A DNA stretch of 64,000 bases, from assembly GCF_030384885.1 (NCBI RefSeq), contig NZ_CP128613.1, one strand, 5' to 3'. The position numbers are program-made. Positions 47,301-50,300 of this stretch are shown here, one piece after another (position 1 is the first letter of the stretch; every line of letters begins with the position of its first letter). Source of the DNA: Escherichia coli. Its GTDB lineage: Bacteria > Pseudomonadota > Gammaproteobacteria > Enterobacterales > Enterobacteriaceae.

Positions 47301-50300
47301 CAATAGCGCCAGCATTTACCAGTGGCGAAAGCGGTTTGCCGCCATGCAACTCTAAGGCGATAACGGAGTTAAAGGGCAATCCGGTCGGGTCAGCGCCAAC
47401 TTTGTCCTGTACCGCCTGCGGGCCGACATCTTCTAACGCGAGGGCTAACGTACAGACTTTTGAGATGGATTCCAGCGCAAAGCGGTAATCACTGTCACCC
47501 GCGCTAAAGACTTTACCATCGCAGGTCACGATAGCCACTGCCGCCAGTTGACTGGGCACATTCGCCAGAAAGGGAATGTAATCGGCATTTTGTCCGCCGT
47601 TAAGTGAGTGAAATTGGGTGTAAGCCTGATCCACTGCCTGCTGTAATGTGTTTGCATCTAACATCTTTTGTTAACTCCTTTTTATAGATGCGGGAGGGGA
47701 TTCCTCACCCCGGTGCCGATTTTCAGGCATCCTGATTTAACTTAGCACCCGCGACTTAACTACAGGAAAACAAAGAGATAAATGTCTAATCCTGATGCAA
47801 ATTGAGCCGATTTTTTAATCTTTACGGACTTTTACCCGCCTGGTTTATTAATTTCTTGACCTTCCCCTTGCTGGAAGGTTTAACCTTTATCACAGCCAGT
47901 CAAAACTGTCTTAAAGGAGTACGTTATGTCACAAACTATCGACCTGACCCTGGACGGCCTGTCCTGCGGTCACTGCGTTAAACGCGTGAAAGAAAGTCTC
48001 GAACAGCGCCCGGATGTGGAACAAGCGGATGTGTCTATCACTGAAGCGCACGTTACCGGGACTGCCAGTGCAGAACAGCTGATCGAAACCATCAAACAAG
48101 CGGGTTATGACGCATCTGTAAGCCACCCAAAGGCTAAACCGCTGGCGGAGTCATCAATCCCGTCGGAAGCACTGACAGCGGTTTCTGAGGCGCTTCCGGC
48201 AGCAAACGCCGATGACGATGACAGTCAGCAGTTGCTGCTGAGCGGCATGAGCTGCGCCAGCTGTGTTACCCGCGTACAAAATGCGCTGCAAAGCGTACCG
48301 GGCGTCACTCAGGCACGGGTAAACCTGGCGGAGCGTACTGCGCTGGTGATGGGCAGTGCCTCCCCACAAGATTTAGTGCAGGCGGTGGAAAAAGCGGGCT
48401 ACGGCGCGGAAGCGATTGAAGATGACGCTAAACGCCGCGAGCGCCAGCAAGAAACCGCCGTCGCTACCATGAAGCGCTTCCGCTGGCAGGCAATTGTCGC
48501 TCTGGCGGTAGGTATCCCGGTGATGGTCTGGGGGATGATCGGCGATAACATGATGGTCACCGCCGACAACCGCAGTCTGTGGTTAGTTATCGGCCTGATA
48601 ACGCTGGCGGTAATGGTTTTCGCCGGCGGGCATTTTTACCGTAGCGCATGGAAAAGCCTGCTGAACGGTGCGGCGACAATGGATACGCTGGTGGCGCTGG
48701 GAACGGGTGTTGCGTGGCTCTATTCGATGAGCGTCAACCTGTGGCCGCAGTGGTTCCCGATGGAAGCGCGACATCTTTATTACGAAGCCAGTGCGATGAT
48801 TATCGGTCTGATTAATCTCGGTCATATGCTGGAAGCACGCGCACGTCAGCGTTCTTCAAAGGCGCTGGAGAAATTACTCGATTTAACCCCGCCGACGGCG
48901 CGCCTGGTTACTGACGAAGGTGAAAAAAGCGTGCCGCTGGCAGATGTTCAGCCTGGTATGTTACTGCGCCTGACGACCGGCGATCGCGTACCGGTAGATG
49001 GTGAAATTACCCAGGGCGAAGCGTGGCTGGATGAAGCAATGCTGACGGGCGAACCTATCCCACAGCAAAAAGGCGAAGGCGATAGTGTTCATGCAGGTAC
49101 CGTGGTGCAGGACGGTAGCGTGCTGTTTCGTGCCAGTGCGGTTGGCAGCCATACTACGCTGTCACGGATCATTCGTATGGTGCGCCAGGCCCAGAGCAGT
49201 AAACCGGAAATCGGCCAGTTGGCGGATAAAATCTCTGCCGTATTTGTGCCGGTAGTGGTGGTGATTGCGCTGGTCAGTGCGGCAATCTGGTACTTCTTTG
49301 GTCCGGCACCGCAAATTGTTTATACCCTGGTGATTGCCACTACGGTACTGATTATCGCCTGCCCGTGTGCGCTGGGGCTGGCAACGCCAATGTCGATTAT
49401 TTCCGGCGTCGGGCGTGCGGCTGAATTTGGCGTGCTGGTGCGGGACGCCGACGCGCTGCAGCGCGCCAGTACGCTCGATACCGTAGTATTCGATAAAACC
49501 GGGACGCTGACGGAAGGTAAACCGCAGGTTGTCGCGGTGAAAACATTTGCTGATGTTGACGAAGCGCAGGCGCTGCGTCTGGCGGCGGCACTGGAACAAG
49601 GTTCCAGCCATCCGCTGGCACGAGCGATCCTCGATAAAGCAGGCGATATGCAACTGCCGCAGGTCAACAGCTTCCGTACATTGCGTGGGCTGGGCGTGAG
49701 CGGTGAAGCAGAAGGTCATGCGTTGTTGCTGGGTAATCAGGCGTTGTTAAATGACCAACAAGTCGATACTAAAGCGATTGAAGCAGATATTTCAGCTCAG
49801 GCATCGCAAGGGGCAACGCCTGTGCTGCTGGCGGTTGACGGGAAAGCGGTGGCCTTGCTGGCGGTGCGCGATCCGTTGCGTAACGATAGCGTAGCGGCAC
49901 TGCAACGCCTGCATAAAGCGGGATATCGTCTGGTGATGCTAACCGGGGATAACCCCACCACCGCCAATGCGATCGCCAAAGAGGCGGGTATTGATGAGGT
50001 GATCGCCGGGGTGCTGCCGGACGGTAAAGCCGAAGCGATTAAACGTCTGCAAAGTGAAGGACGTCAGGTGGCAATGGTGGGCGACGGCATTAACGACGCG
50101 CCAGCGCTGGCCCAGGCGGATGTCGGTATTGCGATGGGGGGCGGCAGCGATGTTGCCATTGAAACCGCGGCGATTACCCTGATGCGCCATAGCCTGATGG
50201 GTGTTGCGGATGCGCTCGCTATTTCCCGCGCAACGCTGCGCAACATGAAGCAGAACCTGCTCGGCGCGTTTATCTACAACAGCATTGGTATTCCGGTCGC

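Follow-up and report, generated by a model that had tools for sequence, protein, structure and literature searches.

Intact, K-12-identical copA promoter with CueR operator and probable programmed frameshift site in an Escherichia coli genome

The -1 programmed frameshift of Escherichia coli K-12 copA, which yields the protein CopA(Z), was reportedly described by Meydan et al. 2017 and Drees et al. 2017. Ribosome profiling gives good support for frameshifting at copA in E. coli, which has also been confirmed independently (PMC9548414). It involves the slippery sequence together with the nascent chain and a pseudoknot (PMC7558416), its product is 70 aa long (PMC5009743), and S1 and S2 variants of the pseudoknot have been used experimentally (PMC6182138). 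For the activator CueR, the core CCTTCC-N7-GGAAGG, a 19-bp spacer and a wild-type box located 2 bp from the -10 have been reported, together with the bending mechanism at the promoter (PMC8169799). Two other systems share this architecture. In MerR/PmerT and ZntR/PzntA, an over-long spacer also holds a dyad operator and the activator distorts the DNA (PMC8169799 and references in PMC7558416), while the half-site sequence and the metal specificity differ from those of PcopA. On the translational side, the likeness is to E. coli dnaX (A_AAA_AAG), another chromosomal -1 shift at a heptamer ending in AAG and followed by a downstream structure, in which termination almost immediately after the shift gives a shorter functional protein (PMC10861913 and general knowledge). 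The stimulators differ, as dnaX relies on a stem-loop and an upstream Shine-Dalgarno-like sequence whereas copA reportedly relies on a pseudoknot and the nascent chain; no upstream GGAG occurs at the copA frameshift site in Escherichia. The codon AAG is decoded by a single E. coli tRNA-Lys.

We analyzed a 64,000-nucleotide stretch of contig NZ_CP128613.1 (hereafter the window) and confirmed that the copA promoter/operator and frameshift site that it carries are intact, K-12-identical and ordinary. The locus is, with a probability of roughly 93%, a native E. coli copA control region working as described for K-12, and the strain most likely behaves like K-12 at copA. This reading combines what was computed here, namely K-12 identity, reading-frame consequences, domain content, conservation and synonymous constraint, with published work on how CueR binds and bends DNA, on frameshifting in K-12 and on stimulation by a pseudoknot and the nascent chain. 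The window is E. coli. An earlier note on this DNA had listed both elements as already known features, and rightly so, as both match the K-12 reference.

The promoter region comprises the following elements, compared with their counterparts in 80 Enterobacteriaceae species picked by CopA residues 150-834 only.

47856..47861, + strand: PcopA -35 hexamer TTGACC, identical to K-12 and TTGACC in 80/80 species
47860..47878, no strand assigned: CueR operator CCTTCC-N7-GGAAGG, an inverted repeat within the 19-bp spacer, exact match
47881..47886, + strand: PcopA -10 hexamer TAACCT, 19 bp past the -35 and 2 bp past the CueR box
47915..47919, + strand: copA Shine-Dalgarno AGGAG, followed by the strain-specific ACG at 47921-23 (GTT in K-12)

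The half-sites CCTTCC (47860-65) and GGAAGG (47873-78) flank the N7 CCTTGCT, so placed that the box overlaps the -35 and ends at 47878, with the -10 starting at 47881. The MerR-type 19-bp spacer and dyad claimed by the earlier note are therefore present at the coordinates that it gave, base for base as in K-12, where the -35, the spacer, the CueR box, the 2-bp offset and the -10 are all the same. Alignment with the K-12 copA leader, which the note had proposed as a check, revealed no difference in either the dyad or the heptamer. Nearby, the sequences differ solely by 3 nt between the Shine-Dalgarno and the ATG (47921-23) and, further downstream, by five third-codon-position changes in codons 25-33 of copA that leave the protein unaltered. 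The whole stretch from 48025 to 48203, including the heptamer and both helices described below, is identical. With up to one mismatch allowed, the dyad has a single match in the 64 kb (0.09 expected). A standard scan for sigma70 promoters with 16-18-bp spacers found none at PcopA, as expected because its spacer is over-long (19 bp). This spacer and the TT gap before the -10 are kept in 80/80 species, as is the form TANNCT of the -10. The left half-site is conserved in 77/80 and the right one in 80/80, and the N7 exists in 11 variants.

In its core sequence, its 19-bp spacer and its 2-bp offset, PcopA has the features of a CueR-dependent promoter of the MerR type. An intact cognate CueR is encoded in the same genome, and given the identity to K-12, activation of PcopA in this strain probably depends on copper and CueR. 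The sigma70 promoter has a spacer too long for good recognition, and a CueR dimer would sit on the repeat inside it. Cu(I)-bound CueR would then bend and under-twist the spacer, thereby aligning the -35 and -10 for RNA polymerase and allowing transcription of copA.

The transcribed gene encodes two predicted products, whose coding regions and recoding signals are as follows.

47926..50430, + strand: copA, full-length Cu(I)-exporting P-type ATPase, 834 aa, zero frame (NF007952)
47926..48137, + strand: CopA(Z) coding region, 70 aa, join(47926..48132, 48132..48137)
48126..48132, + strand: slippery heptamer C_CCA_AAG in X_XXY_YYZ phase, CCCAAAG in 79/80 species and CCCAAAA in 1/80
48135..48137, + strand: -1-frame stop TAA, one codon past the shift, with a -1 stop here in 80/80 species

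The full-length protein scores 1748.9 bits against the NCBIfam equivalog NF007952 (cut-off 1316), shares 824 of its 834 residues with K-12 CopA and has all of the motifs GLSCGHC, GMSCASC, CPC and DKTGT. Residues 1-93 are exactly those of K-12, and the nascent-chain stimulator is therefore unchanged. The heptamer begins at the third base of codon 67 (CAC) and takes in codons 68 (CCA) and 69 (AAG), and the -1 frame from it reads CCC AAA GGC TAA. The reading of CopA(Z) thus stays in frame 0 for codons 1-69, slips back one base at 48132 and ends with GGC TAA, covering the same 212-nt extent as the two-piece K-12 RefSeq coding sequence YP_009518752.1, the 'soluble Cu(+) chaperone'. The earlier claim of an in-frame C_CCA_AAG at codons 67-69, matching the site of CopA(Z) synthesis, holds on phase, 70-aa product and extent of the K-12 coding sequence alike. 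The product is a single, complete HMA domain (PF00403, 51.7 bits, cut-off 24.8). K-12 has the same heptamer and -1 stop, the same 70-aa product and residues 1-93, and the same 71 nt downstream, without any difference within the element. The PGAP annotation of the strain lacks the CopA(Z) coding sequence although K-12 RefSeq carries it; this is an annotation gap and no biological difference.

Bare CCCAAAG occurs four times in the window, which is not above chance. The copy in copA is the only one in the X_XXY_YYZ phase of a gene on its sense strand, the copy in fsr being out of phase and the remaining two lying antisense. The significance of the heptamer therefore comes from its phase, its identity with K-12 and its conservation, and not from a count of 7-mers. 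Transcriptional slippage was set aside as an explanation, the site having runs of just three C and three A. Homopolymers known to be prone to slippage are far longer than three bases.

RNA folding, the other check put forward in the earlier note, yielded a candidate stimulatory structure of two crossing helices, starting 6 nt past the heptamer and located where synonymous constraint in the gene is strongest.

48139..48144, + strand: 5' arm of putative pseudoknot stem S1, CCGCUG, after a 6-nt spacer past the heptamer, invariant in 73 distinct sequences
48176..48181, + strand: 3' arm of S1, CAGCGG, stack of -9.2 kcal/mol
48162..48170, + strand: 5' arm of putative pseudoknot stem S2, GUCGGAAGC, the sole helix in the RNAalifold consensus
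48192..48200, + strand: 3' arm of S2, GCUUCCGGC, -14.4 kcal/mol
48121..48201, + strand: zone of suppressed synonymous change from codon diversity, codons 66-92 (81 nt), which bounds the recoding element

S1 (6 bp) crosses S2 (9 bp), a topology typical of H-type pseudoknots, and the two are compatible in 80/80 species. S2 is paired in 100% of cells across the 80 species; three of its pairs vary, on one side only, and pairing is always kept. Double compensatory changes in S1 or S2 are absent from the 80 species, whose bases are almost invariant here, and the predicted pairing is thus supported by constraint and compatibility rather than proven by covariation. The crossing-stem score exceeds that of 1000/1000 shuffles, on a crude measure by which a second copA site (about 49396-49495) scores higher than the recoding element. 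The nested minimum free energy of the downstream 80 nt (48133-48212) is unremarkable (z = -0.78) and, the candidate being a pseudoknot, uninformative. The pairs defined here are probably those of the published copA pseudoknot. No Rfam 15 family matched 47856-48210 at the gathering threshold, and copA frameshift elements appear to have no representation in that release. Two other pairings were rejected: an AAA:UUU extension of S1 (48136-38/48182-84), which pairs in about 25% of distinct sequences and is no conserved feature, and an 8-bp helix (48163-70/48181-88), paired in 54%.

Codon diversity in codons 66-92 is 0.055-0.09, against a gene mean of 0.43, which makes them the most synonymously constrained stretch of copA; the 15 windows of lowest diversity in the gene (15/15) all fall within codons 63-99. 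Among E. coli genomes, the recoding element is at least 99% identical in 5343 of 5422 (98.5%), and a control segment reaches this level in 1825 of 5418 (34%). The 81-nt constrained zone coincides with the heptamer and the immediate -1 stop across the 80 species. The constraint also covers loop L1 (GAGUCAUCA, 48148-56) and the upstream codons 64 and 66, which are unpaired in S1 and S2.

This last observation bears on what the constraint is for. It could mainly serve a short 5' copA transcript encoding the chaperone, produced by termination, pausing or processing, beside or instead of ribosomal slippage. A constraint reaching L1 and codons 64 and 66, outside the S1/S2 pairs, would fit such a role, and the title of Drees et al. 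counts toward it. We nevertheless judge this explanation unlikely, since no site resembling an intrinsic terminator lies within the element or past it on the + strand, only Escherichia has the U-run that follows S1, and a -1 stop one codon past the heptamer in 80/80 species is relevant only if ribosomes shift.

A second alternative concerns the stimulator, which might be the S2 hairpin alone, or an equilibrium including a 5-bp helix (48142-46/48162-66), rather than an H-type pseudoknot, S1 being conserved for other reasons. RNAalifold indeed gives S2 only, and S1 is invariant and therefore provides no evidence of pairing. The 5-bp helix is compatible in all species (100%), with changes from G-U to A-U or G-C. 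At -3.4 kcal/mol it is weak beside S1 (-9.2) and S2 (-14.4), which already fix its bases. The position of the helices speaks against S2 acting alone. Stimulators of -1 frameshifting typically lie about 5-9 nt past the slippery site. S1 lies at 6 nt, whereas S2 starts 29 nt past the heptamer, too far to be at the mRNA entry channel while the heptamer is decoded. Moreover, a pseudoknot with mutants of both S1 and S2 is on record (PMC6182138, PMC7558416), and we find a stimulator other than the H-type pseudoknot quite improbable. Finally, although the bare heptamer is no more frequent than chance, the idea that dyad and heptamer are chance matches, or relics without function in this strain, seems effectively refuted by their base-for-base identity with experimentally characterized K-12 elements, their conservation in 80 species and about 5,400 E. 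coli genomes, and the intact CueR and CopA.

If the locus works as in K-12, some ribosomes, having tRNA-Pro paired to CCA and tRNA-Lys to AAG, would be stalled at C_CCA_AAG by the RNA structure 6 nt downstream. Both tRNAs would re-pair one base back, onto CCC and AAA, and the shifted ribosome would read GGC and stop at TAA, releasing a 70-aa protein. This product would correspond exactly to the first metal-binding (HMA) domain and act as the soluble Cu(I) chaperone CopA(Z), while ribosomes that do not slip would go on to make the 834-aa pump.

Because the constraint extends beyond the heptamer and the paired bases, the recoding cassette may also hold an extra component, such as tertiary contacts between loop and helix, a conformational switch in which the alternative helix of 5 bp takes part, or a site at which some factor adjusts the ratio of pump to chaperone; we consider this a long shot.

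The main value of these results is one of quality control, as the earlier note had named two regulatory elements of K-12 correctly to the base. The strain's genes for the copper pump, the chaperone and the sensor appear functional. The published recoding cassette gains modest, independent confirmation from the comparison across species, and the understanding of copper homeostasis is unchanged.

The sensor gene lies at some distance from copA within the window.

18225..18632, - strand: cueR, Cu(I)-sensing activator of the MerR family, 135 aa, intact (NF007590)

CueR scores 308 bits against NF007590 (cut-off 244) and 206.6 against TIGR02044 (cut-off 147.4), passing the CueR equivalog cut-off and staying below those of ZntR and MerR. 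It is identical to K-12 CueR at 134 of 135 residues (D103N), with Cys112 and Cys120 present. The gene is separated from the copA -35 by 29,224 bp, in agreement with the earlier estimate of about 29 kb for the cognate cueR. That the copper circuit is intact, as had also been claimed, holds for copA and cueR; cueO and cus lie outside the window. In K-12 the spacing between cueR and copA is 2.6 kb, against 29.2 kb here, because of an island encoding type I secretion and a giant adhesin that is absent from K-12 and kept in 18% of E. coli. Here cueR forms the tail of the type I secretion operon, directly behind a gene of the HlyD family, with the stop of that gene overlapping the start of cueR (ATGA), and its transcription context therefore differs from that of K-12 further upstream. 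Co-transcription or translational coupling of cueR with the HlyD-family gene through this overlap may occur in island-bearing E. coli, a speculative and rather doubtful prospect; if true, it would tie the dosage of the copper sensor to the expression of the adhesin secretion system.

Relative to its best-matching RefSeq record, NZ_CP027579.1, the window has a 1-bp indel at 43009, and coordinates copied from that record are therefore off by one below 43009.

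The copA promoter described in the earlier note, with a 19-bp spacer carrying a CCTTCC-N7-GGAAGG dyad, is present at 47856-86, the dyad being unique in the 64 kb, and the slippery heptamer C_CCA_AAG lies exactly at the coordinates and codon numbers (67-69) reported for it. The elements of the copper circuit are arranged as follows:

47856-61, upstream of copA: -35 hexamer TTGACC
47860-65 and 47873-78, upstream of copA: inverted repeat CCTTCC / 7 nt / GGAAGG
47881-86, upstream of copA: -10 hexamer TAACCT
47926..50430, + strand: copA, ORF of 834 aa
48126-32, in copA: heptamer CCCAAAG, comprising the last base of codon 67 and codons 68 (CCA) and 69 (AAG)
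18225..18632, - strand: cueR, 135 aa, 29.2 kb from the copA promoter

The -35 and -10 hexamers are separated by 19 bp and the inverted repeat stops 2 bp 5' of the -10; a search of all 64 kb tolerating one mismatch finds this dyad a single time (0.09 expected). A consensus sigma70 scan limited to spacers of 16-18 bp returned no promoter between glsA and copA, which is consistent with a promoter dependent on an activator offsetting the over-long spacer. CCTTCC-N7-GGAAGG is the core sequence of CueR, and PcopA has a 19-bp spacer with its box 2 bp from the -10, a 1-bp shift of this box leading to weaker activation (PMC8169799).

To avoid bias, orthologues were searched with CopA residues 150-834 only, and the upstream flanks were read afterwards. 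Usable loci numbered 79; they range from Escherichia to Cedecea and have amino-acid identities of 85-100%. All 80 sequences share the -35 TTGACC, the 19-bp spacer, the right half-site GGAAGG, the 2-bp gap TT and a -10 of the form TANNCT; the left half-site is CCTTCC in 77/80 and has a single mismatch in the other three, and the central 7 nt occur in 11 variants. Such conserved half-sites around a free centre are the expected pattern for the operator of a dimeric protein. In at least 38/80 Enterobacteriaceae species (loci L010-L082), cueR is divergently oriented and its start lies no more than 40 nt from the copA -35; a divergent regulator beside its target promoter is the layout classical for MerR systems. 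In Escherichia, glsA-ybaT lies between cueR and copA, as does, in the window, a type I secretion/giant-adhesin island.

Aligned with MG1655 over 551 columns, the -35, dyad, -10, 5' UTR up to the Shine-Dalgarno, and heptamer are identical, as is the entire stretch from 48025 to 48203. Bases 47921-23, between the Shine-Dalgarno and the ATG, read ACG versus GTT in K-12, and the other differences between promoter and heptamer are five third-codon-position changes in codons 25-33 that leave the protein unaffected. The product is an NCBIfam equivalog of the copper-exporting P-type ATPase CopA (1748.9 bits; cut-off 1316) with the full set of catalytic and metal-binding motifs, and its 10 residue differences from K-12 CopA all fall at residue 94 or later. 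CueR, found about 29 kb away as claimed, is identical to its K-12 counterpart at 134/135 residues, keeps both metal-binding cysteines and scores above the threshold of both CueR equivalog models. The observation is confirmed and its interpretation supported; the features, listed as known, are indeed already known, match the K-12 elements and have no variant character. Copper-loaded CueR would switch copA on, and a fraction of ribosomes would slip at C_CCA_AAG, releasing the chaperone. Because each of these elements is identical, the best explanation is that the strain would behave as K-12.

The copA leader of this lineage is a minority allele, as the surrounding 901 nt are at least 99% identical in only 12/5,422 genomes: the match is 100% to strain 2013C-4282 (NZ_CP027579.1) and 95-99% in 5,401 other complete E. 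coli genomes.

As a plain 7-mer the heptamer is unremarkable: the window contains four copies of it. Of these, the one in copA alone has the X_XXY_YYZ phase relative to a gene on the sense strand; the one in fsr is out of phase and the remaining two are antisense. A -1 slip in copA is predicted to read CCC AAA GGC TAA, yielding 70 aa that make up a single, complete heavy-metal-associated domain (PF00403, covering profile positions 3-62 of 62). That this site produces CopA(Z) agrees with K-12 RefSeq, where a two-piece joined CDS (YP_009518752.1, 'soluble Cu(+) chaperone', 212 nt from the copA start) has exactly the extent 47926..48137; the PGAP annotation of 2013C-4282 carries full-length copA only and lacks the ribosomal-slippage CDS of CopA(Z). 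The heptamer is CCCAAAG in 79/80 sequences and CCCAAAA in one, and the -1-frame stop lies exactly one codon past the shift in 80/80. A 70-aa frameshift product has been described (PMC5009743), and a study that refutes the corresponding claim for human ATP7B states that frameshifting in E. coli copA has good ribosome profiling support and independent confirmation (PMC9548414). A Shine-Dalgarno-like GGAG found 8 nt 5' of the heptamer in 44/80 species (loci L010-L083), and absent from Escherichia, recalls the dnaX upstream stimulator.

The check for a downstream stimulatory structure points to a candidate pseudoknot. Nested folding of the 80 nt 3' of the heptamer is unremarkable (z = -0.78); helix enumeration yields two crossing 9-bp stems with H-type pseudoknot topology:

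48136-44 with 48176-84: stem S1
48162-70 with 48192-200: stem S2

At the recoding site, the best-scoring pair of crossing helices has a summed stacking energy of -27.1 kcal/mol, versus -11.7 +/- 4.8 in dinucleotide shuffles, none of 1000 being as low. This score alone is not decisive, because copA ~49396-49495 beats the recoding site on this crude measure, probably fortuitously since synonymous sites there show no suppression. Over 73 distinct sequences, the 6-bp core of S1 (48139-44/48176-81) shows zero variation, its AAA:UUU extension being Escherichia-specific, and pairing in S2 holds for 100% of cells, three of its pairs carrying one-sided changes that always keep pairing (G-C to G-U; U-G to U-A or C-G; C-G to U-G). 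No double compensatory changes occur in either stem in this set and RNAalifold recovers S2 only, with a negligible covariation term; constraint and compatibility in all sequences thus support the pairing, which covariation does not prove. The S1 core begins 6 nt 3' of the heptamer, the usual distance placing a structure at the mRNA entry channel during heptamer decoding, and S2, at 29 nt, is alone too far to sit there. A 5-bp helix (48142-46/48162-66), compatible in all sequences but weak (-3.4 kcal/mol versus -9.2 for S1 and -14.4 for S2), is a possible alternative conformer; an 8-bp competing helix, paired in only 54% of cells, was rejected. The copA pseudoknot and S1/S2 variants have been used in single-molecule work (PMC6182138), and we infer that the present stems are the published pairs.

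Codon-aware synonymous diversity averages 0.43 over the whole of copA versus 0.055-0.09 over codons 66-92 (48121-48201), and all 15 of the gene's lowest-diversity windows fall within codons 63-99, a zone coinciding with heptamer, S1 and S2. Among E. coli genomes, 5,343/5,422 carry the 88-nt element at 99% identity or more, a level that a control of the same length, taken 60 codons upstream, reaches in 1,825/5,418. Codons 64 and 66 and the loop L1 (GAGUCAUCA) are near-fixed at synonymous sites (48115-48123, 48148-48156) and lie outside the heptamer and both stems, so that neither helix accounts for their constraint. Drees et al. 2017, to judge by the title, reportedly found differential transcript formation too, and together with this unexplained constraint it suggests that the region could have a second RNA-level role, although a scan revealed no terminator-like site there, which counts against it.

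The distance between cueR and copA, 29 kb versus 2.6 kb in K-12, results from the island, which has no K-12 counterpart and spans 18629-45099 between cueR and ybaT:

18629..19804, - strand: HlyD-family adaptor
19801..21963, - strand: ABC permease/ATPase
21967..43635, - strand: BapA/SiiE-like adhesin ORF, 7,222 aa
43744..45099, - strand: TolC-family gene

The stop codon of the HlyD-family gene and the start codon of cueR share bases in an ATGA (window 18629-18727), and in strains that have the island cueR may be transcribed together with the secretion operon. In K-12, ~95 bp 5' of cueR share homology with the 3' end of the HlyD-family gene, which indicates a deletion scar in K-12; of 5,426 complete E. 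coli genomes, 959 have the junction in full and the rest break at one same point. The giant adhesin contains internal repeats of 3-5 kb at 72-77% identity. Its ORF is intact here and annotated 'frameshifted' in NZ_CP027579.1; a run of five C at ~43009, versus four in that record, could reflect a homopolymer sequencing error in one record or phase variation.

The copA-ybaP gap (50431-50758) is 329 bp versus 795 bp in K-12, ybaQ being unannotated in this strain, and holds an Rfam naRNA4 (REP-like) element matching on both strands (50542-50619). The known small RNAs sroB/ChiX and AgrB lie between ybaP and ybaK (51552-51635, -) and adjoining dinQ (5316-5404, -), respectively. A further ~3.7-kb insertion separates ybbJ from cueR (14500-18224), which abut in K-12, and carries a gene for a YadA-family adhesin-like protein (15229..16245) alongside several for hypothetical proteins.
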